Of a stretch of DNA of 64,000 nt, positions 32,087-53,793 are shown piece after piece. The notes beneath the pieces were generated by a model, which had not been told where the DNA came from, searched no databases, and was given only the letters and a program-made list of their open reading frames with translations. The stretch comes from Candidatus Campbellbacteria bacterium GW2011_OD1_34_28 (GTDB lineage: Bacteria; Patescibacteriota; Minisyncoccia; Phycocordibacterales; UBA12079). The stretch lies in the NCBI GenBank assembly GCA_001029775.1, contig CP011215.1, positions 682,303-746,302 of the forward strand, read 5' to 3'. A program made the position numbers and the translations under genes. Within the stretch, counting starts at the first letter, position 1. The number at the start of each line of letters is the position of its first letter.

Positions 32087-32128
32087 GTTGCTGCGGGACT
32101 AGGACTCGAACCTAGATAGGCGGTACCA
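32087..32128. repeat. 39-bp direct repeat identical to the 3' half of the tRNA-Gln gene (attR-like island boundary)
   Basis: ctgcgggactaggactcgaacctagataggcggtaccag is identical to 49684..49722. Confidence 0.8.
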
Positions 32129-32241
32129 GCATTAAAATTGATTTACCCTAATCAGTGTTTGTTTTGTACATTGCTGGCGTCCTTGAGCTAGAACCGTGGT
32201 CGGTCAAGCCCCGTAAGGACATTTTTAATACTTTTATCTTA

Positions 32242-32637
32242 TCATTTCGACGGTCTTTGAGCAGTAGCTTTTTTGTGATCGGGACACCCATCTTTCTTAT
32301 GGTCTAAATATTCAGCCCATGTAATAGATCCTGCATCGGAAACAGTTTTTTCAACTAATTCCAGGTCTTCCTTAGTTAGTTCTCCCTCCTTTTGGTACGG
32401 GCCCCACTCAGACATTTTTTGTATTAAGTGTGCAACGAAATATTGGGGCTTATGATCTTTACCATCGTAGATCCCCAGCAGTTTAAGATTACACGATTCT
32501 ACCTCTGTTTCAGAATGAGTTAAGACAACCGCCAGTGGCGCTTCGGCTGGGCCACCAATAAAAACTATTGGGTGCCACGCTTCGTCAAACGATCTCTTTT
32601 TGCCCCGAAGAATATCTCCCTTTTTGAATTTTTCCAT
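32242..32637 (-). CDS. hypothetical protein, last gene of the repressor-headed operon
   Basis: ORF only. Confidence 0.3.
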   Translation of the reverse strand: MEKFKKGDILRGKKRSFDEAWHPIVFIGGPAEAPLAVVLTHSETEVESCNLKLLGIYDGKDHKPQYFVAHLIQKMSEWGPYQKEGELTKEDLELVEKTVSDAGSITWAEYLDHKKDGCPDHKKATAQRPSK

Positions 32638-32686
32638 ATTTTAATCAATAAAAAGTGACAAAAGTGACACTGGTTCGACTATAAAG

Positions 32687-33433
32687 TTACACTTGCTTGT
32701 TACCTTTGTCTATTAGTTTATCTAGAGCAATCAAGACTGGGTAATTAGGATTATCCAACGTATACCCAAACCAAAAATGGCTATGAATTTTAACCTCTCT
32801 AACAATCTCTCCAAGCTTTTCAATTAGGTCATCTTTTAAGATTAATTGGCTTGCTCCCGCTGGATCTTCTAAGTGCTTATTTTTATGGGCAGCAACTTGA
32901 TGTCTGATTTTATGGAAATGATATTTTTCAAACTTCTCCTTAATTATTTCCAAATCAGCTAATCCCTCCTCCGTTGTTTTGATTACGCGAAATTGGGCCA
33001 TAATATCCCCACGGTTATCTATTGGACCCAAGAAATCGTATTCAGAAAAATCTGGATTAGGGTAATCAATTTTAATTCTTTCAACAAATTGATCAAACAT
33101 CTCAGGATCATCTTTCGAAATCAGACCGCGTTGCATATCTATAACTTCCTCTAGGGCTGGTTTAATTCTAACCTCTTCATCTTTTCTTGAGCAAAGCAGC
33201 GTATGTAAAATACTCACTGCCTCATTAAAGGAGTTGTTTGCAGATAGTAAGAGGAATCGATAGTAATCATGTTTCTCATTTTTATTTACCACTTCTAAAT
33301 AAATCTTTTTACAGGTAAGAAAATTAATATCTGCAAGATATATAAGGGAGACAATATCGTATTTGAATTTAAAAGGGATTTTAGGCATATTTGTATAAAC
33401 CCTAAAATCTTTCCACCAAATCTCTTGATTCAA
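32687..33433 (-). CDS. hypothetical helical protein with a possible HEPN-like Rx5H motif (KIRHQVAAH)
   Basis: Overlaps the upstream effector gene by 32 nt (same operon). Confidence 0.3.
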   Translation of the reverse strand: MNQEIWWKDFRVYTNMPKIPFKFKYDIVSLIYLADINFLTCKKIYLEVVNKNEKHDYYRFLLLSANNSFNEAVSILHTLLCSRKDEEVRIKPALEEVIDMQRGLISKDDPEMFDQFVERIKIDYPNPDFSEYDFLGPIDNRGDIMAQFRVIKTTEEGLADLEIIKEKFEKYHFHKIRHQVAAHKNKHLEDPAGASQLILKDDLIEKLGEIVREVKIHSHFWFGYTLDNPNYPVLIALDKLIDKGNKQV

Positions 33434-34019
33434 AAGCGAGTGTCATTTCACCGCGAGTCTTGCGACTGGTCCAATACTCTCCCTCAAGAGACTTACTCGG
33501 CTTATTTATGATTTTTAAAATTGACGCGCCATCATGGATTGCGCTTCTATCGCGAATGGTAGCCTTAGGTCGATTCGTATAGTTATATGTCAAATAAAGA
33601 TCTTCGCTGTTTGAGGCAACATTTATATCTGCGGTAGTACTGTAGCTCGACGATTCTTTCGTCATCAGTGTGCATTTAATACTTGAAAAAGTTTGTCTGA
33701 TCACCAGAATCATAGGGATTGGATCGATACCTTTTCCTGTTTCTGGATTAATCCAGTCGCTTTTCAGTTCTCCACGCCATGTACCCTGGAGATCTGGAAT
33801 CTTAATGAGCCAGCCTTGGAGAAATTTCCAACGCCACAACCATTTTGTAAAGATGATACCTATGATTGCGTAGATTGAAATCGCTTGAGGTATCAGTTTT
33901 ACTGCCATCCATAAATCAAGAGTTGAATACGTTCTAGTAACAAGAATTACACCAGCCCATATAATTAGGAAAGTGAAAATTTGCGCATGTATTTTAATCG
34001 TGTTATTTATTTTTTCCAT
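33402..34019 (-). CDS. two-TM membrane effector-like protein (Cap15/S-2TM-beta-like) downstream of the CD-NTase
   Basis: Two N-terminal TM helices, then a soluble beta-rich domain; 5-nt gap to the CD-NTase gene. Confidence 0.4.
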   Translation of the reverse strand: MEKINNTIKIHAQIFTFLIIWAGVILVTRTYSTLDLWMAVKLIPQAISIYAIIGIIFTKWLWRWKFLQGWLIKIPDLQGTWRGELKSDWINPETGKGIDPIPMILVIRQTFSSIKCTLMTKESSSYSTTADINVASNSEDLYLTYNYTNRPKATIRDRSAIHDGASILKIINKPSKSLEGEYWTSRKTRGEMTLAFESRDLVERF

Positions 34020-34024
34020 AGTTT

Positions 34025-34915
34025 TTACTCAAATCCAAGATAGTCCCATGCCCTAGAGAAAAAGGAGTGGGCCTTCTCTCGCGTACAAGGTTGATGCGTT
34101 CCGTAAATATTTTTAATATCGTTAACCTCACACAACGTCGCATGTTTTCCGTTTGGTAATGTTTCGTTATGGCAGTGTGCAAGGACAGCACGCACGTCAG
34201 CAGAATATGTATCCCTATTGAAATGGTCATCAGGTGCACTCCAGACCATACTTTGAATCAGAAAGGACGGGATATCTTTTGCCTCGACAATATTTTCTTC
34301 CTGCATCTTATTTCGCAATCTTTTTAGAATCCGAGTTATCTTGCGATACCTTTGGCCAGTTGCCTCATGTTTGTTTTTGCAGTTTTCATAGGTCTGGTGA
34401 GGCCAATTTATTATTTTTGTGCCGTCATCAGCAAGAAAACAAACGCCTTCAGGGTCATGCCATTTGTACCCCGTATCGTAGTAATATCTATATGCTAAAG
34501 CAGGTACGACATCCGCATCTACCCTGTATGAATTTGAATGGATATCAAAAGCCTTGTTCCCACGAGTAACACTTGTCTTCCCAAAATAGTCCTCAAGTGC
34601 TTTTTGAACTAGATTTTTAAATTCAGCAAACGAGATGCTCCCGTCTGAGTTCCCGTAGTCCTCCTTTGATTTTCCTTGGGGGTATCTTGGAAAAAACGTT
34701 GAGTTCAAACATACACAGATATCAACGTCGCTATCATTCTTCACATTGGTTCTCGATTTGTATGAACCTTGAGGAATGATTGATATGTCCATGCTCGACA
34801 ATGTTACGTTCGCCTTTATGGCTTTTTTAACAGCTATCTCAGCGTTCTCCATTTTTTGCTGTTCCGTGACACCAGGAGCACCGCCCCAGGATTTGAATGT
34901 ATCTTCCCAAGCCAT
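34025..34915 (-). CDS. cGAS/DncV-like nucleotidyltransferase (CD-NTase, SMODS-type) of a CBASS-like system
   Basis: Pol-beta NTase motif QGSYKSRTNVKNDSDVDICV (GS...DxD) and third acidic motif RVDADVVPA. Confidence 0.55.
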   Translation of the reverse strand: MAWEDTFKSWGGAPGVTEQQKMENAEIAVKKAIKANVTLSSMDISIIPQGSYKSRTNVKNDSDVDICVCLNSTFFPRYPQGKSKEDYGNSDGSISFAEFKNLVQKALEDYFGKTSVTRGNKAFDIHSNSYRVDADVVPALAYRYYYDTGYKWHDPEGVCFLADDGTKIINWPHQTYENCKNKHEATGQRYRKITRILKRLRNKMQEENIVEAKDIPSFLIQSMVWSAPDDHFNRDTYSADVRAVLAHCHNETLPNGKHATLCEVNDIKNIYGTHQPCTREKAHSFFSRAWDYLGFE

Positions 34916-34918
34916 ATG

Positions 34919-35164
34919 TTAATTCTTTTTATCTCTAGGCGGAAAAGGATCTCGACCAGGCGCAACAGTATCACTGTCTCGGATCGGTCCACCATTTGGT
35001 TTGTGAATTCTAACTTCACCTCCACCAGATTTTGCTGATAAATCTTTCGCTATTTTCTCTGCTTCTCGTTGAGTGTTAGCAGTAGCAGAAGCACGATCAG
35101 CTCCCTCACGCTTTACTCGCCAATCATCAGAACCTTTTGGATTTGTAACATGGTAATTTGCCAT
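34919..35164 (-). CDS. DUF2188-family small protein
   Basis: YHVTNPKGSDDWRVKREGADRAS...EVRIHKPNGGPIRD pattern; 3-nt gap to the CD-NTase start. Confidence 0.5.
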   Translation of the reverse strand: MANYHVTNPKGSDDWRVKREGADRASATANTQREAEKIAKDLSAKSGGGEVRIHKPNGGPIRDSDTVAPGRDPFPPRDKKN

Positions 35165-35170
35165 ATGTGT

Positions 35171-35818
35171 TTAATATAGATCTCCGGGAAGTATCGCAAC
35201 CACTACTCCTTGGATCATACAGTTATCTGTTAATATAATCGGCTTATGGGTTTTATTGCTTGATTTTGGTCTAAGAACAACTACGCCGTCTGCCTTTTCA
35301 AAAATCTTCACGGTTGCCTCGTCATTAATGAGTGCAACCACTTTGTCTCCGTCCAATGCGGTATCTTGCTGACGAATCAGTAAGAGATCACCGCTGTTGA
35401 TACCTGCCTCATTCATCGAGTCGCCGACTGCACGCAGAATGAAATACTTTGAACCCTTTTTTGCCAGACCTGTAGATACTGGGATATAGGTTTGTATATT
35501 TTCTTCGGCAAGCGCTGGCGTACCGCAGGTAACCGCCCCCACAAGTGGAACATCAATCGTACTTACTGAAGCAACCGACTGTGTTCCAATAAGAATGAGC
35601 TGTCTCCCAACTTTTTTTATCAGTCCTGCATCAATCAAGCGATCAACTACAAGGCTTGCTGAACGTGGAGATTTTCCTCCCGTTACTTCGTTTATTTCAC
35701 GAAGTGAGGGGCTTTCACCATAATGGATAATCTTGTTGCGAATAAGGGCAAAAGCTTTTTTGTCTTTGTCACTAAGGTTATTTGTCATGGTATAAGTAGT
35801 ATACAAAACCCTATACAA
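35171..35818 (-). CDS. LexA/CI-like repressor (HTH + S24 peptidase Ser-Lys dyad)
   Basis: N-terminal wHTH (SLREINEVTG); C-terminal S24 domain (AVGDSMNEAGI...GDKVVALINDEATVKIF). Confidence 0.75.
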   Translation of the reverse strand: MYRVLYTTYTMTNNLSDKDKKAFALIRNKIIHYGESPSLREINEVTGGKSPRSASLVVDRLIDAGLIKKVGRQLILIGTQSVASVSTIDVPLVGAVTCGTPALAEENIQTYIPVSTGLAKKGSKYFILRAVGDSMNEAGINSGDLLLIRQQDTALDGDKVVALINDEATVKIFEKADGVVVLRPKSSNKTHKPIILTDNCMIQGVVVAILPGDLY

Positions 35819-35846
35819 AAAAGCAAGTATTTGCTACCATGGAGTT
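35819..35846. promoter_or_regulatory. divergent promoter/operator region with a repeated TATACAAAA motif
   Basis: gtatacaaaaccctatacaaaaaag between the divergent repressor and 35847 genes. Confidence 0.3.
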
Positions 35847-36260
35847 ATGGACTACAAACTCGAGCTAAAACCTTTTGAACGAAAGGACGGCATGAAGTAT
35901 AAAACCATCCAACTAACGGATATTGCGCTTCACACAGCCAAGAAGACCCCTACTCCCTCCGTCGGTAAGAAAGTGCAAAATGCATTCAAGAATGACAAGC
36001 CAGATCGCATTTATTCAAAGCTCGAAAAGACGGCGGTTTCTGATGATAAAGCGTTCACCCTTGATCTGCTAAAAATGGATTCTGATTTTCTAAAAATGGT
36101 TCGAGATGAAGAAGCAAAGGGCTACAAGATTTTAATCGCCCTGCCGAACGAGGGTGTCCCTGTCTTCCCAGGCAAGGACACGGTCGAATTTATGAAAAGT
36201 AAAAACGGCAAGCGGATTATTCGTGGTCTTGCAAAAGAAAAAGCAAGAGATAAAATATAA
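35847..36260 (+). CDS. hypothetical protein transcribed divergently from the repressor (Cro/early-gene position)
   Basis: Position only. Confidence 0.3.
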   Translation: MDYKLELKPFERKDGMKYKTIQLTDIALHTAKKTPTPSVGKKVQNAFKNDKPDRIYSKLEKTAVSDDKAFTLDLLKMDSDFLKMVRDEEAKGYKILIALPNEGVPVFPGKDTVEFMKSKNGKRIIRGLAKEKARDKI

Positions 36261-36425
36261 GTGTTAGATCCTGCGTAGTAAAAAGTAGAATAGTGTATCG
36301 CCTCCAAGCCATGCCTATTCCGCGCAAGAAATAGTTTGAGGTTTTTCGGACCTCTCCCTATTTCGTGTGTGGAGTAGGCTTTTTCTATATCCATACATTT
36401 TATTAAACATAATTAATAAAATGCT

Positions 36426-37700
36426 ATGAAAAAACTTTCATGGACAACAGGAATACGAGAGGTTAAAGACCTATTCCCTTGGAAAGAAAACCCAAGAAAA
36501 ATCTCAAAACAAGCGTTGGATAAATTAAAAGAGAAAATCACGCAAAATGGTTTTCACAGTGTGATCGTAATTGATACAGACAACACGATACTCTCGGGTA
36601 ATCAACGAAAGACGGCACTCACCGAACTTGGTGTGAGTACGGTTAATGTAATGATTCCCAGTCGCAAGCTTACAGATAAGGAGCGACGAAAAATCGGCAT
36701 CGAGAGCAACATCAACGACGGCGAATGGGACTTCGAGAAATTGAAATCTTTTGATTTGGAATTACTTCAATTCGCTGGATTCGACGGGAAAGAACTAGTG
36801 AAATTTTGGGACGAAGAAAAGGATACGAAAGACGATAAGTTCGATGTCGATAAGGAACTCAAGAAGATCAAGACTCCTCAGACCAAGCCAGGTGATCTAA
36901 TAATCATGGGCAACCACAAGCTACTCTGCGCAAGTTCAACTGATATCAACGCCGTTACAAAACTATTCGGCGATGACAGGGCTACTGCTATCTATAGCGA
37001 CCCACCATTCAATATCGGACTCTCATACGATAAGGGTGTTGGCAATAAAAGTAACTATGGTGGGTCTTTCGACGATAACCAATCGGCAGACGAGTATGTG
37101 AATTTTATTCGTAAGGTTATGCAATCGTCCCTTGCAATATCAATTAAGGATATTCATGTCGCGTTCTGGTGTGATGAGGCATGGGTGTGGGTTTTCCAGA
37201 CGTTGTACATGGAACTCGGCATCAAGAACCGAAGACTGAATATCTGGATCAAAAACAATTCATCACCGACCCCAGCCGTGGCATTTTCAAAATGTACGGA
37301 GTTCTGCGTGTATGGAACAAAAGGATTGCCGTACCTGTCCGACCTTATTAAAAATCTTAACGAGATTCAAAACAAGGATTGCACAACGGGTAACCAACTT
37401 CTCGGAGACATCTCAAATATCTGGGCAATCAAACGACTACCATCGAATCAAATGGAACACCCCACAAGCAAAAACCCAGAACTCCACCATAAATTCATAA
37501 TGCGATGCACCAAGCCTGGAGATATCATATTCGATGCCTTTTCAGGATCAGCTAGCACCATGATCTGCGCCGAGCAACTAGACCGCAAAGTGTACTCACT
37601 CGAAATTGAGCCGGTTTTTTGTGACCTGGCGATTCGCAGGTACGAAAAACTAACTGGTCGGAAAGCAACGGTAACCAAAAACTATTATGAAAAAGAATAA
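36426..37700 (+). CDS. ParB-like nuclease domain fused to an N6A/N4C DNA methyltransferase (phage-type orphan MTase)
   Basis: N-terminal ParB/Srx-like domain; motif IV SDPPFN; C-terminal motif I FDAFSGSAST. Confidence 0.7.
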   Translation: MKKLSWTTGIREVKDLFPWKENPRKISKQALDKLKEKITQNGFHSVIVIDTDNTILSGNQRKTALTELGVSTVNVMIPSRKLTDKERRKIGIESNINDGEWDFEKLKSFDLELLQFAGFDGKELVKFWDEEKDTKDDKFDVDKELKKIKTPQTKPGDLIIMGNHKLLCASSTDINAVTKLFGDDRATAIYSDPPFNIGLSYDKGVGNKSNYGGSFDDNQSADEYVNFIRKVMQSSLAISIKDIHVAFWCDEAWVWVFQTLYMELGIKNRRLNIWIKNNSSPTPAVAFSKCTEFCVYGTKGLPYLSDLIKNLNEIQNKDCTTGNQLLGDISNIWAIKRLPSNQMEHPTSKNPELHHKFIMRCTKPGDIIFDAFSGSASTMICAEQLDRKVYSLEIEPVFCDLAIRRYEKLTGRKATVTKNYYEKE

Positions 37701-38103
37701 ATTTCAGGATCAGTTTCTTGCCGAATTAATAAAAATCCCAATTATACAAGTTGCCTGCGAGAAAACAGGGCTATCTCGCAATAGTGTCTATCGGTGGAAA
37801 AAAGAAGATAAGGAATTCTCTAATAAAATGGACGAGGCATACGCCGAGGGTGTCGCTTTGGTAAGCGACATGAGCGAAAGCCAGCTACTTACTCTTATTA
37901 AAGAAAAGAACTACCCAGCTATTAGTTTCTGGCTTCGTCATAGAAATGAAAACTATAAGAACAAGCTAGAAATCACTACTAAGGAAGACGACGAGGAACT
38001 TACACCGTCACAGGCAAAAATCGTGAAGCAAGCACTAAGGCTCGCAAACATCACTAAGTCGAAATCCATTAAAAACATTAATAGATCAAAAAGTCATGAC
38101 TAA
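37687..38103 (+). CDS. HTH protein, probable terminase small subunit
   Basis: Overlaps upstream and downstream genes; HTH (TGLSRNSVYRW); sits immediately before TerL. Confidence 0.4.
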   Translation: MKKNKFQDQFLAELIKIPIIQVACEKTGLSRNSVYRWKKEDKEFSNKMDEAYAEGVALVSDMSESQLLTLIKEKNYPAISFWLRHRNENYKNKLEITTKEDDEELTPSQAKIVKQALRLANITKSKSIKNINRSKSHD

Positions 38104-39580
38104 AATAATTCCAACTGCTCTGGTCAATACTATGATCAAAGACAGGTCCGTGCGTACATCAATCACCAAAGATAGCTTCCTCTACTTCTTCCACTTCTAC
38201 TATGCACACTATGTGAAATACGAAACAGCAGATTTTCAAAAAGAGATTATTCATAATCTCGAAAAAAGTGCTGTTGAAAATCTCTATGTCGTTGCGTTTC
38301 GTGGATCAGGAAAATCAACTATGGTGACAACTGCATACCCAATCTGGGCGATTCTTGGAAAACAACAAAAGAAGTTCTGTATCATTTTTTGTCAGACAAA
38401 AGCCCAGGCAAAACAGCACATGATGAACATCCGATCAGAGCTTGAGGGTAATGATGTTCTCAAAAGGGATCTTGGACCTTTTCAAGAAGAAAGCGATGAA
38501 TGGGGTTCGCACTCTCTTGTGTTCAAAAAGCACGGTGCAAGAATTACTGTCGCTTCGAGTGATCAGAGTATCCGTGGACTTCGTCATAATGAACACCGTC
38601 CCGATCTAATTATCTGTGACGATGTTGAAGATGTACAATCAACAAAGACTCGCGAGGGACGAGACAAGACCTATTACTGGCTTCGTGGTGAAGTTATTCC
38701 TGCAGGTGACAAAACTACCCGACTGATTATCGTTGGTAACTTACTCCACGAAGATTCGCTCCTCATGCGTATCAAAGACGAAATCGCTCAAGGTAAGGCA
38801 AAAGGTACATTCAAGGAATATCCGTTGCTCGATAAAAATGATGTTTGTCTGTGGCCAGGAAAATACAAAGACACAAAAGATGTTGCGGATGAAAAAATGA
38901 AAGTGGCGAGTGAAATTTCATGGCAACGAGAATACTTACTCCGCATCATTCCAAGTGACGGTCAGGTGCTTTACCCAGAATGGTTCTGCTACTACGACGA
39001 ATTGCCTGGAGCAAGTCATATAGCGTATCGTGGTACTTATGCTGGAGTAGACCTTGCAATATCTTCTAAAGATGCGGCGGACTTCACCGCAATAGTTTCT
39101 GCACATGTCTATGGTCGTAGAGAGAAAATGAGAATATATATTCTACCTAATCCGATTTGTCAGAAATTGAACTTCCCAGCACAAGTTGATCTCATGAGAA
39201 ATTTCAAAGCAACACAAATGCCTCGGTACACCGATAAATTCTTTGTTGAAAGCGTTGCATATCAAGAAGCACTACCGCAGATGTTGGAACTGCACGGCAT
39301 CGAAGCGCAATCTGTTAAGCCTAAGGGAGATAAACGAACGAGATTGTCGCTGACTTCGACATCAATCAAGTCTGGAATCATTAAGTTTCCGAGGCATGGG
39401 TGTGAGGATCTTATACGAGAAATGGTTGGATTCGAGATCGAAAAACACGACGATCTTGCTGACGCTTTTTCGCTACTGATAAATGCGACGCTCGATTATC
39501 ACTCACAGGAATCAACTTGGATTATGGCGTTCTTGGGTGGAGACACTATATATTACAGCGACTATGTTGATGTGGGTTAA
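38096..39580 (+). CDS. phage terminase large subunit
   Basis: Walker A VVAFRGSGKST; Walker B-like LIICDDVED; C-terminal RNase H-like nuclease (GVDLAIS...DFTAIV). Confidence 0.75.
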   Translation: MTKIIPTALVNTMIKDRSVRTSITKDSFLYFFHFYYAHYVKYETADFQKEIIHNLEKSAVENLYVVAFRGSGKSTMVTTAYPIWAILGKQQKKFCIIFCQTKAQAKQHMMNIRSELEGNDVLKRDLGPFQEESDEWGSHSLVFKKHGARITVASSDQSIRGLRHNEHRPDLIICDDVEDVQSTKTREGRDKTYYWLRGEVIPAGDKTTRLIIVGNLLHEDSLLMRIKDEIAQGKAKGTFKEYPLLDKNDVCLWPGKYKDTKDVADEKMKVASEISWQREYLLRIIPSDGQVLYPEWFCYYDELPGASHIAYRGTYAGVDLAISSKDAADFTAIVSAHVYGRREKMRIYILPNPICQKLNFPAQVDLMRNFKATQMPRYTDKFFVESVAYQEALPQMLELHGIEAQSVKPKGDKRTRLSLTSTSIKSGIIKFPRHGCEDLIREMVGFEIEKHDDLADAFSLLINATLDYHSQESTWIMAFLGGDTIYYSDYVDVG

Positions 39581-39599
39581 ATATAGCTCGCGAGTATCT

Positions 39600-40202
39600 T
39601 CACTCTTCGTTCTCAATTCTTCTTCTGCGCTCGTCTAGTGTTTCGCCGTCATACATCCAGTAGTCTGTTCCAGCTACTCCGTAATCATAGCCAAGTATCT
39701 TTTGTGCAGAGGTGGAGAGACTGGTTATCTCACCTCCAAACTCAATAGTGTTGTTATCAACGACTTGGGCTTTAATGTTTTCGTCTCGGCTAAATACCAA
39801 TTCGGATCCGACAGGAATATCAACGATACTAAAATTAAATTTCGATCTCCGTGTACGCGCCTGATTCAATGCTTCCTGATCTTCTTTGGACTCAACAAAA
39901 TCTTTTTTCGGAGTAATGTTTTCTATCTCTGCTAATTTAAGGGCGGCCACCACTCGCTCTGGTGAAATATGGAAAAATTCTCTTCTTGGATTTATACGAC
40001 TATCATCAAAAGCGTCGTGTAGTTGCTGTTCAACGAACGTGGCACTATTTACTGTACAGGCGTAAAAACAAGTAAATGGAATAGGGACACTTGTTGAAGA
40101 ACTCAGCTCTCGAATTCGTTGTTCTAAACTCGTGGAAGTTTTACCTATCTTTACATAACCAGGCATCGCCTCGTTTATGAGGATATAAATTATTTCGTTC
40201 AT
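39600..40202 (-). CDS. GIY-YIG nuclease superfamily protein (T5orf172/MUG113-like)
   Basis: N-terminus YILINEAMPGYVKIGKT...R.R... Confidence 0.55.
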   Translation of the reverse strand: MNEIIYILINEAMPGYVKIGKTSTSLEQRIRELSSSTSVPIPFTCFYACTVNSATFVEQQLHDAFDDSRINPRREFFHISPERVVAALKLAEIENITPKKDFVESKEDQEALNQARTRRSKFNFSIVDIPVGSELVFSRDENIKAQVVDNNTIEFGGEITSLSTSAQKILGYDYGVAGTDYWMYDGETLDERRRRIENEE

Positions 40203-40330
40203 GTTGTTGGTTCGGTTTTCTAATAATTAGGTGGCCAGATACACAAAAATCCCGCCACCAGAAGGAGACCTTTCGATCATCCCTACCTAAGTTTCCCTAG
40301 GTAACCGAACCAACGACCCTGATGACGGGG
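40203..40330. repeat. structured inverted-repeat region upstream of the serine recombinase (candidate recombination site)
   Basis: ttgttggttcggtt ... aaccgaaccaacg inverted pair flanking ggtggcc...gccacc, plus a third ttggttcgg copy. Confidence 0.35.
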
Positions 40331-40554
40331 TTTTTACGTTGGTTCGGATTTGCAACCATATCCTTTGGAAAACCAAAGGGGTTAGGTCGACTGATATTCA
40401 GTTGTAAATTAATAATAACATTTTCGACTTTATTATTCTAGATTGATTGTATCGCTGATACATGATTTTGCTAAGACTCTATATACGACCATGCTACGTA
40501 TCTCTAGTTCTGCATAGTCTATGCACCACCAACTGGTCTGTCATCAATATATGT

Positions 40555-41874
40555 ATGGAGACGCAGTATATAAATAATCTAGGTGTTAAGACCGAAGTGC
40601 CACGCATAAAGGTTCGTTACGTCCTGTATGCTCGTAAATCAACCGAATCAGACGAGAAGCAAGCTTTGTCGATTGAATCGCAAGTAAAAGAAATGTTATC
40701 AATCGCAGATCGTGACGGTCTTGAAGTTGTAGACATTAGACGAGAATCACACTCAGCAAAAGAATCGGGACAGCGACCAGTCTTCAAGGAGTTATTGGAA
40801 GACTTGAGACGAGGCAGGTATACAGGAATACTTACTTGGGCACCAGATCGTCTCTCTCGTAATGCAGGAGATCTTGGATCAGTCGTCGATCTTATGGATG
40901 AAAATAAGCTGATAGAGATCAGAACGTACGGACAACATTTCAAAAATTCACCAAACGAAAAATTCTTATTAATGATTCTTTGTTCTCAGGCAAAGTTAGA
41001 GAACGACAACAAAAGTATTAATGTGAAGCGTGGACTACGAACACGGTGCGAAATGGGATTACGGCCAGGTCCTGCCGTTGTTGGATATCTCAACGAAAAG
41101 CATTTAGATAAAAAGTGCCAAGTTGTTATCGACCCTGAACGAGCGCCTATAGTCAAACAGATATTTGAAAAAGTAGCGCATGAAAAATGGTCAGGGAGAA
41201 AGATATTTCATTGGCTCAAATTCGACCTGAATTTTAAGACACGAAGTGGCAACAAGGGGCTTACCCTAAGCAACATTTATCTCATACTCGAAAACCCTAT
41301 TTACTACGGAGTTTTCGAGTATCCGAGGAAAAGTGGAAATTTCTATACAGGAAAGCATGAACCGATTATCTCTAAAGAGCTTTTTGATCAAGTCCAAGAG
41401 CAAGTAAAAAGTCAGGTGTTACGAGTACAGGAACCGAAAGAATTTGCTTTCACCAAAATGATGACTTGTGGCTTATGCGGGTCTGGCATCTGTGCGGATG
41501 AGAAATTTAAGAAACTCAAAGACGGGTCAGTGAACAGGCACATCTACTACGGCTGTACAAAGTCCAAAGACAAGTACTGTAAGTGTGGGTACACAAACGA
41601 AATTGAGTTAATAGGGCAATTTGAAAAACTGCTTGATCGAATCAGCATTAGCGAAATCGGAATGAAAGAGAAGATCAAATACGAGGTTGAACGAATAAAG
41701 AAGTTTCAGCAATCAGTTTTGAACATCAAGCAACAAATCCAAATAAAAGACGTAGACATAAGAGATTATGCCAAATTTATTTTAAAAGAAGGGTCAATCG
41801 AAGAAAAGCGAGAATTGCTAACTTGTTTTAAGAGTAAAATTTTATTGAAAGACAAAACTATTTCTCTCGGTTAA
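40555..41874 (+). CDS. large serine recombinase (resolvase/invertase N-domain + recombinase domain + zinc ribbon)
   Basis: YARKSTESDEKQ...SIESQ catalytic Ser region; recombinase domain; Cys cluster. Start placed at the internal ATG at 40555. Confidence 0.8.
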   Translation: METQYINNLGVKTEVPRIKVRYVLYARKSTESDEKQALSIESQVKEMLSIADRDGLEVVDIRRESHSAKESGQRPVFKELLEDLRRGRYTGILTWAPDRLSRNAGDLGSVVDLMDENKLIEIRTYGQHFKNSPNEKFLLMILCSQAKLENDNKSINVKRGLRTRCEMGLRPGPAVVGYLNEKHLDKKCQVVIDPERAPIVKQIFEKVAHEKWSGRKIFHWLKFDLNFKTRSGNKGLTLSNIYLILENPIYYGVFEYPRKSGNFYTGKHEPIISKELFDQVQEQVKSQVLRVQEPKEFAFTKMMTCGLCGSGICADEKFKKLKDGSVNRHIYYGCTKSKDKYCKCGYTNEIELIGQFEKLLDRISISEIGMKEKIKYEVERIKKFQQSVLNIKQQIQIKDVDIRDYAKFILKEGSIEEKRELLTCFKSKILLKDKTISLG

Positions 41875-41880
41875 TAACCT

Positions 41881-44800
41881 TTATTCATAAAACTTACCGC
41901 CAGAAATATCAAAGAATTTCTCAAAGAAACTCGTCAGCTTATCTATAACACTTTCACGTTTTTGAGTACGTTCACCAGTTGGAGAAAAGCGAGATACTGG
42001 TGGTAAAACTTTTGTAATAGCGGTACCAGTCGTTGCGATGCTTCCATCACGGAACGCGTTTTTTATAAACGTGACAGTCTCATCATGATCAAGATTTTCA
42101 CTAGTGATAATTTGCTCAAGTTCTTCAATCTTTTTCTTATCAACAAACTTCTGCCAATCGTCATCCACCATTGAATGAACATCAAGGGAGGTTATAAACT
42201 GATTGATGAGATCCTTTTTATTGCGTAATTCAATACTAGAATCTATCGCCTTATTAATATCAAGTAATAACTCACGATTTTTGATGTGGTCTTCGTGATA
42301 TTTTTTGATAAGTCCTAGGACATAATCAATATTGATTTCTATCTGCTTGATAAGCTCCATTTCAAACACCAGATCATCATTGATGTTCTCCTTAACGTCC
42401 TCTATTGTCTTGCGAAAGTCGTTGTAGAGATCAATATATATACTGTGATAATCCTGAATATCACGCTCAGTTAAAATCTCATTACCTGCAAACTCGTCAA
42501 ATGTCGTGAGAATATTACGCACTCGCAGAATTGCACTGTATAGTTTAATAAAATCTTTTTGACTTTGCTCGCCAACAATCCGCTGTCCCACAGGAAATTT
42601 TTCCAGAAGTTCGGCTACCAAACTCGCATATCCTCGAACTTCTTTCTCGTTATCTTTATATCCGTTGTAATACTCTGCGTACGATTTCAAAAGCACAATA
42701 CCACTAGCTTCTTTATCGCCAAAGAGTGCAATTGATTCATTGGTCGCTTTCTCTAAGTTACGGAAACAAACGATATTTCCAAAAGTTTTGACGCTATTTA
42801 GGATACGATTCGTTCGTGAAAATGCTTGAAGAAGACCATGTAATCGAAGATTTTTATCTACCCATAATGTATTGAGTGTCGTAGCATCAAAACCTGTCAA
42901 AAACATATTGACCACAATCAAAACATCAACTTCACGATCTTTTACACGCTGGCTGACATCCTTATAATAATTCTGGAATTTATCAGATGAAGTATCATAG
43001 GAAGTCCCAAACATTGTATTGTAATCCTTGATGGCACTCTCCAAGAAATCTCGCGAACTCACATCTAGCCCACTTGTATCTTCTGAATTTTCATCAATCA
43101 TTCCGTCTGCGTCCTCGTCATTTACACCAAAACTAAAAATGGTTGCGACTTTGAGCCGTTTATCGCTAGGCACTTCCGCAAGTTGTTTTTTAAATTCAGC
43201 ATAGTACTTTTTAGCAACATCAATTGATGAGACTGCAAAAATGGAATTGAACCCAGCCAATCTTCGGTCCTTTATTTTATAGAAACTATTACGCTTTGTT
43301 TTTTGATCAAAATGTTCACGAATGTATCCAACAATATTCGCTAGACGTTCTGGTGAAGCAAGTACAGCTTCGCGGTCAATATCACTGACTTTTTTGTCTT
43401 CAATGTTCTCAGCTTCGCGAACAGTAGAAACGTAGTCAACCTTGAACGGTAGAACATTTTTGTCGGCAATCGCATCAACGATAGTATAAGTGTGTAATTT
43501 TTCACCAAAAGCTTGCTCTGTTGTCTTCAAGTCTGGTCTACCCCCAGAAGATGCGTTAATAGCAAAAATTGGAGTACCAGTAAAACCAAAGAGGTGGTAA
43601 TTCTTGAAAGCTTTTATAATGCCTGCGTGCATATCACCAAATTGTGAGCGATGACACTCATCAAAAATAAGCACAACATGACCATCTAAAATAGCATGTT
43701 CATTATTGCGTCCAATGAAGCGATCCAGCTTCTGAATAGTTGTGATGATTATGCGTGCGTTCGGATTTTCGAGCTGCTTCTTCAATATCGCCGTAGAAGT
43801 ATTGCTATTTGCTGAACCCTTCTCAAACTTGTCGTATTCTCGCATTGTCTGGTAGTCCAAATCCTTACGATCTACAACAAACACGACCTTATCTACATAA
43901 GGCAACTTACTGACTAACTGCGCCGTCTTGAAACTGGTCAAGGTTTTTCCTGATCCAGTCGTGTGCCAGATATATCCACCAGCCTCTACTGTTCCAAGCT
44001 TCTTGTAGTTTGTGCTAACTTCGATTCGACTTAATATCCGTTCGGTAGCTACTATCTGATATGGTCGCATTACCAACAACAGATGATCGGTAGTAAATAC
44101 ACAGTACCGAGTTAAAATATTCAAAAGTGCATGTTTCGCAAAAAATGTCTTAGCGAAATCCATTACGTCTGTAATCGGTTGATTGGTAGCATCTGCCCAC
44201 CAACTAGTGAACTCAAAACTATTGCCTGTACGCTTACCCTTTTTCGCACCGCCCTCGTTAGATTCTTTAATATGCTGAGACCTTGTGGTGTTGCTGTAAT
44301 ATTTTGTATGCGTGCCATTTGAAATGACAAACAATTGAACATATTCAAAAAGCCCACTTGATGCCCAAAAACTCTCACGCTGATAGCGGTTAATTTGATT
44401 GAATGCTTCGGCAATCGCTACACCTCGGCGCTTAAGTTCAATGTGTACTAAAGGTAATCCATTCACCAACACAGTTACATCGTAACGATTGGCGCGCTGA
44501 CCATCTTCTGTCGCATACTGGTTTATTACTTGCAGACTATTGTCATGAATGTTGTCTTTTTTTATAAGATAAATATTTTTTATGGTACCGTCGTCGCGCG
44601 TTAGATTCTTGATGTGATCTTCTTGAATAGTTGTAGTTTTTTCTTCAATACTTTGATTTGGGTTAGCAAGCTCGCCCACAAAGAAATGTTCCCATTCGGT
44701 ATCAGAAAAGGTAACCTCGTTGAGTTTCTCTAGCTGTTGTCGTAGATTCAAGACCAAATCATTTTCGGAGGTTAGCTTCAGGTATTCATACGCTTGTGTT

Positions 44801-44940
44801 TCAAGTTGCTGAATAAAAGCACGTTCCAATTCTGCTTCGCTTTGGTAATGAGTCGCACGCTTTGCATCAGGAGTGTACTGCGACACCACTGTGCTTTGTG
44901 AATTTTCGGCGACCAAATTGTATTTGTTGTTATTTTGCAT
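41881..44940 (-). CDS. hsdR: type I restriction enzyme R subunit
   Basis: 1019 aa; N-terminal nuclease; SF2 helicase motifs (TGSGKTLTSF, DECHRS); overlaps the hsdS stop. Confidence 0.9.
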   Translation of the reverse strand: MQNNNKYNLVAENSQSTVVSQYTPDAKRATHYQSEAELERAFIQQLETQAYEYLKLTSENDLVLNLRQQLEKLNEVTFSDTEWEHFFVGELANPNQSIEEKTTTIQEDHIKNLTRDDGTIKNIYLIKKDNIHDNSLQVINQYATEDGQRANRYDVTVLVNGLPLVHIELKRRGVAIAEAFNQINRYQRESFWASSGLFEYVQLFVISNGTHTKYYSNTTRSQHIKESNEGGAKKGKRTGNSFEFTSWWADATNQPITDVMDFAKTFFAKHALLNILTRYCVFTTDHLLLVMRPYQIVATERILSRIEVSTNYKKLGTVEAGGYIWHTTGSGKTLTSFKTAQLVSKLPYVDKVVFVVDRKDLDYQTMREYDKFEKGSANSNTSTAILKKQLENPNARIIITTIQKLDRFIGRNNEHAILDGHVVLIFDECHRSQFGDMHAGIIKAFKNYHLFGFTGTPIFAINASSGGRPDLKTTEQAFGEKLHTYTIVDAIADKNVLPFKVDYVSTVREAENIEDKKVSDIDREAVLASPERLANIVGYIREHFDQKTKRNSFYKIKDRRLAGFNSIFAVSSIDVAKKYYAEFKKQLAEVPSDKRLKVATIFSFGVNDEDADGMIDENSEDTSGLDVSSRDFLESAIKDYNTMFGTSYDTSSDKFQNYYKDVSQRVKDREVDVLIVVNMFLTGFDATTLNTLWVDKNLRLHGLLQAFSRTNRILNSVKTFGNIVCFRNLEKATNESIALFGDKEASGIVLLKSYAEYYNGYKDNEKEVRGYASLVAELLEKFPVGQRIVGEQSQKDFIKLYSAILRVRNILTTFDEFAGNEILTERDIQDYHSIYIDLYNDFRKTIEDVKENINDDLVFEMELIKQIEINIDYVLGLIKKYHEDHIKNRELLLDINKAIDSSIELRNKKDLINQFITSLDVHSMVDDDWQKFVDKKKIEELEQIITSENLDHDETVTFIKNAFRDGSIATTGTAITKVLPPVSRFSPTGERTQKRESVIDKLTSFFEKFFDISGGKFYE

Positions 44941-46180
44941 ATTCGGGAAATGTTAAAAGCTTGCTTCGGTAGTATTCGTATTGAGATCTGCGAGCTTTGA
45001 GTTCAGCTGGCAGACCGATAGAAATATCGTTCACGAGAGCATCGAATTTATCTAAAACTGTTACGATTTGTTCTTGTTCGGCGATAGGTGGAACTGGGAT
45101 TTTAATTTTTTTTAATTCTGCCATCGGAATACTCATAACAGGAGATCCAACAATTTTATTTTCAATTTGCTTTTTTGCAATTATAGAATTAAGGAAGAAT
45201 AACAAAAATTTTGAATCTACGACTTTTTGATTCGGTTTGATTACATATACACCCTCTTTTATGTTCCAATTCTTCGGTTTCTCTTTCACTAAAGCAGTTC
45301 TACCGATTGTTCCTGTTCCAGAAAACAAAACGTCGCCAACTTCCAGATTGGATCTATTATTTATCAATCTTAACGCTTCGTCATTTACCCTGTCAGTCTT
45401 TTCAAAAAATGTTACATTTAAGCCGTTTATTTCACGAACCGTAACATAGTAATTATTCGCGTCCTGAGTATTCAAAACAAAGTTTTTACGTGGATTCAAA
45501 CCTGTTTTAAGTGATAAAATAATATCACCCAATGTTTCCTCTCTAACTTTTTCATCAAATATAAATAGTCCAGAGCGATAATACTCATATTGCTTCTTCC
45601 TAGCTTCTAGCTCAGCTTCTAGCTCAGCTTCTAGCTCAGTAAAACTATTAAGAATAGTGACAATTTCTTCTTGGATTGCAAGGGGTGGGAGAGGGATTTT
45701 GAATTTCTTGACTTCATTATCTGAAATTGCTGGATAGCTGGCACCTTTCTGTGTTGCCTCTACGTAATCACAAAATTCAGATGAGCCAATCAGATGAAAA
45801 ACAAAATCAGTCAAAATTACACTGGTGTCTGGACGCAACACACAAAAACCAGTACTACAAATTTGTCCATCATATTGGGCTCCGATTACACAAAATCGTT
45901 TGAGTGTTGGCCTCGTTGTACCAAAAATAACATCACCCTTCCTAACTATTTTTTGTGCACGACTAGGTGCTGTGTCTGAATCTACCGTCTGTACTTCTGA
46001 AATAGCGTGTGTCACCCTATCTACAGATGATAAATCGATATACTGAAATGTTTTCCCGACATTATTTTGCCAATTTATATTCGAGGTCGGTTCACAGACC
46101 TTACCTAACTCCTTAAACTCAACCCCTTTAGGACAGAGTTGGGCAATCAACTTTTCAATTTTGCTTTGGTGTTTGGACAT
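44930..46180 (-). CDS. hsdS: type I restriction-modification specificity subunit (two TRDs)
   Basis: Duplicated TRD architecture with a central conserved region containing the ELEAELEAELEA repeat. Confidence 0.85.
   Translation of the reverse strand: MSKHQSKIEKLIAQLCPKGVEFKELGKVCEPTSNINWQNNVGKTFQYIDLSSVDRVTHAISEVQTVDSDTAPSRAQKIVRKGDVIFGTTRPTLKRFCVIGAQYDGQICSTGFCVLRPDTSVILTDFVFHLIGSSEFCDYVEATQKGASYPAISDNEVKKFKIPLPPLAIQEEIVTILNSFTELEAELEAELEARKKQYEYYRSGLFIFDEKVREETLGDIILSLKTGLNPRKNFVLNTQDANNYYVTVREINGLNVTFFEKTDRVNDEALRLINNRSNLEVGDVLFSGTGTIGRTALVKEKPKNWNIKEGVYVIKPNQKVVDSKFLLFFLNSIIAKKQIENKIVGSPVMSIPMAELKKIKIPVPPIAEQEQIVTVLDKFDALVNDISIGLPAELKARRSQYEYYRSKLLTFPEYAK
45603..45638. repeat. 12-bp tandem repeat x3 (agcttctagctc) in the hsdS central conserved region
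   Basis: Perfect 3 copies, in frame, encoding ELEA repeats. Confidence 0.8.
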
Positions 46181-46181
46181 A

Positions 46182-47729
46182 TTAAATTTGGCTAATTTTT
46201 ACCAGCAAAACATTGTAATGATACAAACTTAACTGCTTTTTTATATTTCTATAATTTATAATGCTGAAAAAGGGCAATTTTAAATCATCTTTACTTGTGC
46301 CTATAGCATAAACAATTGTGTACTCGGATGGATTTGGGTCACTCTCCAAGACTACGCTTTTATGAGAATTAATAAGTTTTGAATTGACTTCTTTTCTGAA
46401 TGATTTGTCTGTAAGCAACAAATCAGCGGATACCAGTCCCTGACTAAATAAATGGCTTAGTACGGCACTTGCCCCGTATTTCTTCACATGCACTAGGTGT
46501 TTATCAGACCTAACAAGATCAGCAAATTCAATTTTGCCTTTTCCTATCAAGTTAGTTTGACTTACACCACCATCAAGACACTGATAAGCAGTGTCATTCG
46601 TTGCAACTTTATTATTGTAAATATTTTCGTGATCATTCTTATCCCAGTCTGGCAAAGCAAAGGTCGCATCTACACGATACTCACTCTCAATCTTATTTTT
46701 GTAAGTCGCGTCTACTTTGTAATATTTACCAGCTACTAATAAATATTTCTCACTGTTGGAGTCGATTTCAGCATATAAACATTTATATATTGACCATTCT
46801 TTTATGAACTGATCATTGGTATCTACTTGTTGCACTTTTTTACTTTTGAGCAAATCTACTGTGATATTCGTCTTCTCGTCATCAGTCAACGAATCCTTAA
46901 AATCATCAAAAATGATATCCTGATATTCTGTAGCATTATTTCTGGCGCTATATTTAAAACATTTTGTATTTTCCCATTCAATAACTTCGGGGATTGCGAG
47001 CCAACAAATTACATCGGTCTTACTATCATCATTTATTTTTGAAACAATCTTATTATCTAAATCAGTTACCACCTTTTTATCGTTAACGGCAGAAAAATTA
47101 TCAAACCAATCAAATCTCTCTTTGTATTTATTGGAAATGTATGCCTTGTATAGCTCAAGAAGTACGTCATTAACCTCATCAACATTCCTTTTGATAGATA
47201 TACTAATTGCATCCTTTCCTATAACATTCTTTCCATACAATTCCTGATCCTCTGGTTCACCAACAACAGCCCTCATAATGTCCTGCTCAATATCAAAACC
47301 AAAATCTGCAACCGTTCCAATTCTACCGAGCTGTTCCGAAACATCTTTTAGTCCATTTTTAAAATTCTTTTTTTCAATTTTCTTTACTTCGCTTTTAATG
47401 ACACTAAGAGCTGTTTTGATTCCAAATTGCTCAACTATTACACCATCTTTGAACATTTGCCACCCATGACCGAAAGATAAACCGAAGTAAATGTCTTTAC
47501 TGTTATATTTTGTTTTTGTTATATATAGCCCCGAAGCAGTAGAATTCTTTAGATCTTCGATATTCTTATTGAAAAAATTATCTGTCCATGCTGGCTTTTT
47601 TGAAAATGATTTTTTGTAGTATAAGACCCCATTGTCAAAAATCTCATTCGTACTTACGTCCTTAACGACATCACTATGGTCTGTGATATTATCCTTAATC
47701 AAATAAATTGAGAGTTTTTGATTTTTCAT
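46182..47729 (-). CDS. uncharacterized 515-529-aa protein embedded between hsdM and hsdS (candidate R-M-associated defense gene)
   Basis: Translationally coupled both ways (4-nt gap after the hsdM stop, 1-nt gap to the hsdS start). No P-loop and no obvious catalytic motif. Confidence 0.4.
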   Translation of the reverse strand: MKNQKLSIYLIKDNITDHSDVVKDVSTNEIFDNGVLYYKKSFSKKPAWTDNFFNKNIEDLKNSTASGLYITKTKYNSKDIYFGLSFGHGWQMFKDGVIVEQFGIKTALSVIKSEVKKIEKKNFKNGLKDVSEQLGRIGTVADFGFDIEQDIMRAVVGEPEDQELYGKNVIGKDAISISIKRNVDEVNDVLLELYKAYISNKYKERFDWFDNFSAVNDKKVVTDLDNKIVSKINDDSKTDVICWLAIPEVIEWENTKCFKYSARNNATEYQDIIFDDFKDSLTDDEKTNITVDLLKSKKVQQVDTNDQFIKEWSIYKCLYAEIDSNSEKYLLVAGKYYKVDATYKNKIESEYRVDATFALPDWDKNDHENIYNNKVATNDTAYQCLDGGVSQTNLIGKGKIEFADLVRSDKHLVHVKKYGASAVLSHLFSQGLVSADLLLTDKSFRKEVNSKLINSHKSVVLESDPNPSEYTIVYAIGTSKDDLKLPFFSIINYRNIKKQLSLYHYNVLLVKISQI

Positions 47730-47733
47730 AACA

Positions 47734-49320
47734 TTATTTATTGCTCTCAATATCAGCCACAATCTCATCAATTGCCATGCGAAGCTCTTGTTGTCTTTTT
47801 ACAATTCGACCAATTTCGACATTAAGCTCGGTGATATTTACAACCTCGCGAGTATTTTCAGCCACGACATAGCTCAATACGGCGATATTGTAGTCATTCT
47901 CAGCGACAACTTTATTATCTACAAGCTTGGCAAAATACTCTGCATCTTTACGTTCAATAAAAGCGTTGAGAATTTTTTTGCGACTTGCTTCACTCAACTT
48001 ATTTTTATTACCACCACGAACAAATTCAGCGGAGGCATCAATGAAGAGAGTTTTGTTATCTTTCTTACTCTTCTTGAGTACGATGATACAGGTGGCGATA
48101 GTTGTACCGAAGAATAGATCGGGTGGTAATTGAATAACTGCATCAACGTAATTGTTATCTATGAGGTACTTGCGTATCTTCTGTTCTGCGCCGCCACGGT
48201 ATAGAACCCCTGGAAATTCGACAATAGCCGCCGTACCACTCGTAGAGAGCCACGCGAGCATGTGCATAGTAAACGCTAGATCCGCCTTACTCTTTGGTGC
48301 TAATACTCCAGCTGGTGAAAAACGTGGATCATTAATAAGAAGAGGGTTTGCGTCACCATCCCACTTAATCGAATATGGTGGATTCGAAACAATGGCATCG
48401 AAAGGTTCGTCGTCCCAATGTTTTGGATCAGTAAGTGTGTTGCCGTGAGCAATATCAAAATTATTGTAATTAACATCGTGCAAGAACATGTTGATACGGC
48501 AAAGGTTGTAAGTAGTAAGGTTAATTTCTTGTCCATAAAAACCTTGTCGAACATTTTCCTTACCTAGCACTTTTGCAAATTTGAGAAGAAGAGAACCAGA
48601 ACCACAAGCTGGGTCGTAAACCTTGTTCACTTCCTTCTTCCCTACGGTAGTGATTTCTGCCAGAAGTTCACTGACTTCTTGTGGGGTGTAAAATTCCCCA
48701 CCAGACTTACCGGCATTTGAAGCATACATGGTCATCAAAAACTCGTAAGCGTCACCGAAAGCATCTATGGTATTGTCGGAGTAATTGCCAAGACGTAGGT
48801 CACCAATAGCTTCAATAATTTTAGTCAGTTTTTGATTGCGTTGCTCTACTGTATTACCTAATTTATTAGAATTAACATCAAGATCAGCAAATAAACCCTT
48901 GAGGTCATCTTCACTATTTGCGCCTTTTGCAGAACTTTCAATATCACGGAAAGTTTTAACCAGCGTTTCGTTGAGGTTTGAATCATTACGCGCTTTCTTG
49001 CAAACATTTACAAAAAGTTCACTTGGCAAAATATAAAATCCTTTTTCTTTTACCGTATCAGCTCTACCAAATTCAGCTTCTTTATTGGAAAGCGAAGCAT
49101 AGTCAAAATCTTTTTTACCAGCACGACGTTCGTCAGCGTTAATATAGTTGGTCAAATTTTCGCTAATGAAACGATAAAAGAGCATGCCTAGTACATATTG
49201 TTTAAAATCCCAACCATCAACACTTCCTCGTAAGTCATTGGCGATCTGCCAAATAGCACGATGCAATTCTGAGCGTTCTTGCTCTTTGGTAGTATTTAAA
49301 TTTAATTCTTTGTTGCTCAT
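47734..49320 (-). CDS. hsdM: type I restriction-modification methyltransferase subunit
   Basis: HsdM N-terminal domain; motif I DPACGSGSLLL; motif IV NPPY (IVSNPPYS). Confidence 0.9.
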   Translation of the reverse strand: MSNKELNLNTTKEQERSELHRAIWQIANDLRGSVDGWDFKQYVLGMLFYRFISENLTNYINADERRAGKKDFDYASLSNKEAEFGRADTVKEKGFYILPSELFVNVCKKARNDSNLNETLVKTFRDIESSAKGANSEDDLKGLFADLDVNSNKLGNTVEQRNQKLTKIIEAIGDLRLGNYSDNTIDAFGDAYEFLMTMYASNAGKSGGEFYTPQEVSELLAEITTVGKKEVNKVYDPACGSGSLLLKFAKVLGKENVRQGFYGQEINLTTYNLCRINMFLHDVNYNNFDIAHGNTLTDPKHWDDEPFDAIVSNPPYSIKWDGDANPLLINDPRFSPAGVLAPKSKADLAFTMHMLAWLSTSGTAAIVEFPGVLYRGGAEQKIRKYLIDNNYVDAVIQLPPDLFFGTTIATCIIVLKKSKKDNKTLFIDASAEFVRGGNKNKLSEASRKKILNAFIERKDAEYFAKLVDNKVVAENDYNIAVLSYVVAENTREVVNITELNVEIGRIVKRQQELRMAIDEIVADIESNK

Positions 49321-49323
49321 AAA

Positions 49324-49530
49324 TTATTTTAATAATTCGTTAGTCGAAACACCTAACGCCTGGGCCAGGTTAGTAATAGTTGCGAGAGTTGGATTTGTCT
49401 TCGCATTCTCTAGATTACTAACAAAAGAACGATCGACGCCTAATTTCTTAGCAATCTCGACTTGAGTGATATTTTTCTTGATTCTGATTCGCTTGAGATT
49501 TTGTCCAAGCTTTTTAACATCGTCAGTCAT
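49324..49530 (-). CDS. XRE-family HTH regulator (controller-like) upstream of the R-M operon
   Basis: LKRIRIKKNITQVEIAKKLGVDRSFVSNLENAK HTH; 3-nt gap to hsdM. Confidence 0.6.
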   Translation of the reverse strand: MTDDVKKLGQNLKRIRIKKNITQVEIAKKLGVDRSFVSNLENAKTNPTLATITNLAQALGVSTNELLK

Positions 49531-49680
49531 AAAAGTATTATAGCACATTCTGTTGTAGTATAAAACAACAAAAAACACTCCTTGTTCAAGAGTATTTTTT
49601 GTTCTGAATACTGCTCTCAGCAGGTATGCAATTTAGGTATAGATCTTCCTGATTAGCTCTATCTTTGAGCTAGCTCAAGT

Positions 49681-49754
49681 TGGCTGCGGGACTAGGACTC
49701 GAACCTAGATAGGCGGTACCAGAAACCGCAGTCCTACCATTAGACGATCCCGCA
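49681..49754 (-). tRNA. tRNA-Gln (anticodon CUG), CCA encoded
   Basis: Cloverleaf by hand: U1-A72, G73 discriminator (GlnRS identity), anticodon loop UUCUGGU, T-loop UUCGAGU. Its 3' half is repeated at 32090. Confidence 0.85.
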
Positions 49755-52905: not shown

Positions 52906-53793
52906 CTATAATCCCTTCTCTGCTTCAACGAATTCATCTATTTCTCCATCTTCCAATACTTTATCAACATCTCTAATCTCTACACCGGTTCTGTGATCTT
53001 TTACCTGTTTATAAGGATGCAATACATAGGAACGGATTTGACTTCCCCACTCATTTTCTGTCGTCGCACTGATTTGCATACCCTTCTCTTGTTTCAGTCT
53101 GTCTTCTTCTTGCTTTTTGATCAATTTTGCCTCTATCATAGCAATTGCTCTTTCTCGGTTTTGCGCTTGGGATCTTTCCGATTCTACATGGACGGCAATA
53201 TTTGTTGGAATGTGAACCACTCTGACAGCCGTTTCTCTCTTGTTTACATTCTGTCCTCCGGGGCCCGATGATTTCGCAAATTCTATTTTCAAATCTTCCT
53301 CTGGAATATTTATCTCACCCGCTTTTTCCAACTTAGGAATTACCTCTACCATAGAAAAAGAAGTGTGTCTTTTCTGTTGTGCGTTGAAAGGAGAAATTCG
53401 TACGAGTCTATGTACCCCCGATTCATTTTTTAATTTTCCATATGCTCCGTTACCAACAATCTCAAAAGTAATATTTCTATAACCACCGTGATCATTTTCA
53501 TTTGAATGAATTAAAAAAGTTTCCCAATTTTTATTTTGAGAAAATTTTAAATACATATTATATAAAATTCTAGAAAAATCTTCTGAGTCATCTCCACCTG
53601 CTCCTGACAAAATAGTTACAACTGCATTTCCTTTATCATATTTTCCCACCCCCTCTAATTCATCTTTCAATTGATTAAATTCTTTTATAACAATCTGTGC
53701 AGTTTCTTTGTCGTTCCAAAAATCAGCACGGCCCATTTGTTTTTCAAGTGCTTCTATTTTTTTTAATATTTCATTTTTTTTATCCGTACTCAT
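52906..53793 (-). CDS. prfB: peptide chain release factor 2 (short form, no frameshift site)
   Basis: SPF tripeptide, GGQ motif (SGPGGQNVNK), RF2 C-terminal blocks. Only 295 aa; start overlaps the upstream ORF stop (TAATG). Confidence 0.85.
   Translation of the reverse strand: MSTDKKNEILKKIEALEKQMGRADFWNDKETAQIVIKEFNQLKDELEGVGKYDKGNAVVTILSGAGGDDSEDFSRILYNMYLKFSQNKNWETFLIHSNENDHGGYRNITFEIVGNGAYGKLKNESGVHRLVRISPFNAQQKRHTSFSMVEVIPKLEKAGEINIPEEDLKIEFAKSSGPGGQNVNKRETAVRVVHIPTNIAVHVESERSQAQNRERAIAMIEAKLIKKQEEDRLKQEKGMQISATTENEWGSQIRSYVLHPYKQVKDHRTGVEIRDVDKVLEDGEIDEFVEAEKGL

Follow-up and report, generated by a model that had tools for sequence, protein, structure and literature searches.

What does a gene without an assigned function do when it is nested among the genes of a type I R-M system? 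The question is posed by an operon of five genes, HTH-hsdM-X-hsdS-hsdR, all of them on the minus strand of the window (64,000 nucleotides of a Candidatus Campbellbacteria genome, to which all positions refer; Table 1). A first-pass annotation had described the same order, with gaps of 4 nt and 1 nt and an overlap of 11 nt, and the junctions as read directly bear it out. The HTH gene and hsdM are separated by 3 nt (TAA-TTT-ATG), hsdM and X by 4 nt (TAA-TGTT-ATG, with the hsdM stop upstream of the X start), and the X stop and the hsdS ATG by 1 nt (TAA-T-ATG); hsdS and hsdR overlap by 11 nt. HsdM, HsdS and HsdR are all intact, within one transcription unit.

The operon, its island and the boundaries of gene X

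The annotation had also listed X as a gene of ~520 aa at 46182-47771. The gene is real, but its start is probably not the one implied. This maximal ORF opens at a TTG and overlaps hsdM by 38 nt. The start is most likely the ATG at 47729, since this choice fits both the 4-nt gap to hsdM and the 515-aa homologues, which align over 100% of their length; the product would then have 515 aa.

The R-M operon is cargo of an integrated phage-like island. At either end of the island lies a 40-nt copy of the 3' part of tRNA-Gln, the two copies being identical and in direct orientation (32090-32129 and 49683-49722). A terminator-like hairpin and a promoter-like site precede the HTH gene, the number of promoter-like sites in the region being not above shuffle expectation. 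Elsewhere in the window, a prfB with the classical +1 frameshift was ruled out, as no CTTTGAC is present and the release-factor ORF begins with an ATG at 53793.

Table 1. Features of the operon, of gene X and of the surrounding island, in window positions.
Feature	Position	Strand	Evidence or remark
Integrated phage-like island, about 17.6 kb	32090..49722	.	tRNA, repeat, Pfam and PHROGs evidence
CI/LexA-like repressor	35171..35818		on island
ParB-N6/N4 methylase	36426..37700		on island
Terminase small subunit	37687..38103		on island
Terminase large subunit	38096..39580		on island
T5orf172	39600..40202		on island
Large serine recombinase	40462..41874		on island
hsdR, type IC (EcoR124-like)	41881..44940	-	HSDR_N, SWI2_SNF2, T1R_D3-like, EcoR124_C; TIGR00348 E=4e-172
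hsdS, specificity subunit	44930..46180	-	Methylase_S, two stretches; PADLOC Specificity_I E=7e-93
Gene X, 515 aa	46182..47729 (stop codon included)	-	DUF6119/TIGR04141; GenBank AKM84443.1 'hypothetical protein' (exact-sequence look-up)
X residues 353-515	46185..46673	-	predicted PD-(D/E)xK (restriction-endonuclease-fold) domain
Q430 of X	46440-46442	-	helix following strand 3, predicted nuclease domain
H414-V-K416 of X	46482-46490	-	strand 3, predicted nuclease domain
D404 of X	46518-46520	-	before strand 2, predicted nuclease domain
E368 of X	46626-46628	-	helix 1, predicted nuclease domain
X residues 1-352	46674..47729	-	N-terminal and middle alpha/beta domains; no close solved relative
hsdM, type I methyltransferase subunit	47734..49320	-	TIGR00497 E=3e-227; N6_Mtase and HsdM_N
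XRE-family HTH gene, 68 aa, first in operon	49324..49530	-	HTH_3 E=8e-18; PADLOC Control_protein E=5.8e-13; resembles R-M controller (C) proteins
Promoter-like site, TTTATA-16 nt-(TG)TATAAT	49537..49564	-	consensus match only; ends 6 nt before HTH ATG
Terminator-like hairpin	49567-49603		precedes promoter-like site

Family membership and the predicted nuclease domain

X is an intact, full-length member of DUF6119/TIGR04141. The Pfam model PF19614 matches residues 6-512 of 515 (E=1.4e-117, 394 bits, cut-off 27) and the NCBIfam model TIGR04141 does so with E=1.9e-117 (392.9 bits, cut-off 35). The description of X as uncharacterized thus holds for its function and not for the protein, which belongs to a named family that is itself uncharacterised, with neither an assigned function nor a solved structure. 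NCBIfam calls TIGR04141 a 'sporadically distributed protein'; the literature searched for DUF6119, PF19614 or TIGR04141 gave nothing relevant, and PADLOC-DB v2.0 holds no model of the family. Clustered at 50% identity, the family makes up at least 4,600 groups from many phyla, and it is found on plasmids of Rhizobium, Enterococcus and Vibrio as well as in small-genome CPR bacteria. Its members measure about 515-570 aa with no fusions among the best 150 of 4,682 clusters, and X does not differ from them in length or in its single architecture.

The residues invariant in DUF6119 are present in X (E368, Y371, D386, E401, D404, H414, K416, H426, Q430 and R445). Regular-expression searches of X found neither a Walker A motif nor methylase motifs. 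Pfam and NCBIfam gave no match to an ATPase family or to a mobility family, and no PADLOC family matched at E<=0.01, the PrrC/RloC and Shedu models included. The identification of X as PrrC or RloC, which the first-pass annotation had already set aside for want of a Walker A motif, is therefore rejected on both the motif and the model searches. Its statement that X lacks any nuclease or methylase motif stands for the methylase; for the nuclease it gives way to a predicted PD-(D/E)xK domain in the C-terminal 160 residues. The predicted domain contains the alpha-beta-beta-beta-alpha-beta core that matches the PD-(D/E)xK core fold, and carries a family-invariant constellation, E...D...HxK...Q. 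E368, E401, D404, K416 and Q430 are 100% conserved among 263 diverse DUF6119 members. D404 and K416 never vary and occupy the positions expected for PD-(D/E)xK, and the (D/E) slot at 414 is occupied by His (97%) or by Tyr/Phe. The putative active site is predicted to consist of E368, D404, K416 and Q430, with H414 at the usual place of the second acid; the missing acid may be supplied by E401 or D386, perhaps by E368.

No Pfam nuclease family matched X, searches of PDB sequences with X alone and with the family profile returned chance-level matches only, and Foldseek found nothing in the PDB at E<0.05 for the full model of X. In hhalign, the C-terminal profile did not align to the HsdR N-terminal nuclease profile (21 sequences), the sole nuclease family compared. 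In the N-terminal half, the most conserved segment is a basic hairpin (K120, K121, K128, E132, Q133, E148, D150), and residues 1-352 also include an aromatic-rich beta-meander (W243, W252, W312, Y319, Y337). Of the modified-base reader domains, SRA, EVE, Mrr_N and DUF262 were looked for in this part and none was detected.

Genomic settings of DUF6119

We surveyed 80 species-level homologue loci, in which type I calls were based on M and S matches only, because the HsdR HMM, on iteration, had come to match SF2 helicases in general. The X homologue was embedded co-directionally with type I or IIB-like M or S genes in 26 of the 80 loci (33%), followed a type III-like Mod-Res pair in 5 and lay near other N6/N4 methylases in 8. 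DUF6119 is strongly tied to R-M operons, judged against the general expectation that type I genes make up well under 1% of a genome. The embedded loci show three gene orders. The hsdM-hsdS junction, which the first-pass annotation had named as a known insertion point for anticodon nucleases and abortive-infection genes, is not the specific site of X, M-S-X-R and (R-)M-S-X being at least as common as M-X-S-R. Close homologues occur as M-X-S-R, as M-RhuM-X-S-R and as EcoRI-methylase-X-GmrSD/HNH, and the tree of X shows the R-M-embedded members to be polyphyletic. In three R-less loci (L011, L037 and L074) the long 'HsdM' proteins carry an HSDR_N_2 nuclease domain, which makes these loci type IIB-like; X as a substitute for HsdR was rejected on this ground. 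The EcoRI-methylase-X arrangement (L087) prompted the idea that X supplies the type II endonuclease otherwise missing beside the upstream methylase; this is unlikely, as solitary, methylase-free copies exist.

The family is also found away from R-M genes. About half of its members are solitary or on plasmids or prophages, and no partner gene is conserved among the neighbours of the homologues. Other neighbours are of defence type (GmrSD, SIR2, AbiH, Sie and RhuM genes); AbiH and Sie adjoin a family member on an Enterococcus conjugative plasmid. Recombinases adjoin some homologues, and a Pseudomonas prophage record shows one copy flanked by integrases. The family is carried by 32 plasmid records, by 1 of 50,697 phage records and, in a pattern-limited scan of IMG/VR, by 2 loci on viral contigs. 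The first-pass annotation had counted a housekeeping match, or homologues scattered outside defence loci, against a role in defence. X matches no housekeeping family; the scatter does occur, with no R-M gene nearby in 20 of 44 well-flanked loci (about 45%, by HMM search) and with some homologues sitting among housekeeping genes. Its proposal of a novel R-M-associated defence candidate keeps its R-M tie and its defence neighbours and loses its orphan novelty, as the family has thousands of clusters. To call X a candidate R-M-associated defence component is reasonable, since it lacks a housekeeping match, belongs to an R-M-linked family and has relatives with defence, plasmid and prophage neighbours.

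A candidate role for X and its alternatives

The reading that we favor, and to which we give an even chance, is that X is a self-contained defence protein which relies on a nuclease, lacks an NTPase and is passed on within R-M operons. Its nuclease activity, its role in defence and its autonomy are what we infer from the predicted fold and the genomic settings. Residues ~1-350 would form a recognition or regulatory module that binds some feature of nucleic acid, or a cue of infection, and gates the C-terminal nuclease. X shares a transcription unit with a type IC R-M system under C-protein control, probably with translational coupling, and could serve as a second restriction layer against invaders that escape this system. 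It would share regulation and horizontal transfer with the R-M genes and would not be an obligate R-M subunit. The lack of an R-M gene in so many of the well-flanked loci suggests independent action, in contrast to an obligate R-M partner such as PrrC, and the solitary copies fit autonomous function. The predicted nuclease domain with its invariant constellation, the nesting in varied R-M operons and the mobile islands together make the family a testable candidate for a new single-gene defence against phage. If confirmed, it would join the second-layer immunity genes inside R-M systems (PrrC, DarTG2, GmrSD-like) and bring a new recognition module.

Parallels in architecture are offered by type IV (modification-dependent) enzymes such as Mrr and by the GmrSD-like systems embedded in type I loci, for example on VPI-2 of V. 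cholerae (PMC11411939). Like X, these are single polypeptides; recognition falls to their N-terminal part (as proposed for X) and cleavage to a nuclease at the C-terminus (as predicted for X). They need no methylase, as X would not, and like the family of X they are sporadically distributed and often lie beside or inside type I loci. X differs in having neither a known modified-base reader nor an NTPase, and because no such reader was detected the analogy is one of architecture. With Shedu (SduA), X shares a similar domain logic in the proposed model, yet it has no DUF4263 and no PADLOC Shedu match; its N-terminal 350 residues are unrelated, and they are conserved across DUF6119 rather than variable. 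DarTG2 is a defence system embedded between hsdS and hsdR (PMC12255303), and further defence candidates in R-M operons have been put forward by guilt-by-embedding (Payne et al. 2024, 10.1101/2024.01.29.577857). Such cargo resembles X in being nested in a type I operon under an upstream small repressor, although DarTG2 is a toxin-antitoxin pair and X one gene. DUF6119 does not appear in the text of Payne et al. 2024 or in those of its supplements that were searched.

More tentatively, DUF6119 may stand for a restriction-type immunity protein of a new class. The conserved N-terminal module of 350 residues would either be a new reader of modified or otherwise non-self nucleic acid, or dock on the methyltransferase or specificity modules of several R-M types and fire upon their inhibition; either way, the nuclease that it drives would be of the PD-(D/E)xK kind, with an E/D/H-x-K active site that is unusual. 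If this is true, DUF6119 would be a single-gene defence family of wide distribution, with a prominent place in CPR and other uncultivated lineages, that current defence-finding tools miss.

A role outside defence is unlikely, though it has several observations in its favor. X would then be a nuclease or DNA-binding protein of mobile elements or DNA metabolism (recombination, repair, element maintenance or competition), and R-M operons would merely be insertion hot spots on mobile islands. The present operon rides on a phage-like island, and homologues occur on conjugative plasmids, beside recombinases and among housekeeping genes. Yet in its operons X is tightly coupled and runs in the direction of its neighbours, not in random orientation, viral contigs hold hardly any members of the family, and X resembles no known mobility family. 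The only structural match of its N-terminal part, a weak one, is to RdgC, a nucleoid-associated DNA-binding protein; this link fails at the profile level (no Pfam RdgC match, hhalign probability <1%), and the similarity may be due to chance. Were X not defensive, its embedding in R-M operons would still call for explanation.

PrrC and RloC, like X, are non-R-M genes nested co-directionally in type IC hsd operons, which suggests back-up defence. By this likeness X could be a guard, held inactive by the methyltransferase-specificity complex until a phage anti-restriction protein frees it to cut nucleic acid of the host or the phage (tRNA perhaps, as some PD-(D/E)xK toxins do) and so abort the infection. 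We consider this doubtful. PrrC is almost exclusively embedded in R-M systems, whereas roughly half of the X family lies outside R-M loci. The R-M partners of X are of unrelated types (I, IIB-like, III and EcoRI-like methylase), so one conserved docking surface is unlikely. PrrC and RloC carry an ABC/Rad50-type ATPase with a Walker A motif, and X has neither this NTPase sensor nor a match to their models; the effector fold predicted for X, PD-(D/E)xK, is also unlike theirs. The gene positions differ as well, prrC lying between hsdS and hsdR and not between hsdM and hsdS.

X as an accessory R-M subunit, which would contribute a further module for DNA binding or cleavage and so alter type I cutting, end processing or restraint (restriction alleviation), is more improbable still: each of the associated R-M systems has a nuclease of its own (HsdR, the HSDR_N_2 fusion or Res), and X moves between R-M types, varies in its position in the operon and also occurs alone. 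Finally, that X is a catalytically dead nuclease fold that only binds nucleic acid, as His, Tyr or Phe in place of the canonical acid at position 414 could suggest, is highly improbable, as the complete conservation of E368, E401, D404, K416 and Q430 is the pattern that selection typically leaves in an active site, and acidic residues that have moved to other positions are familiar from the PD-(D/E)xK superfamily.

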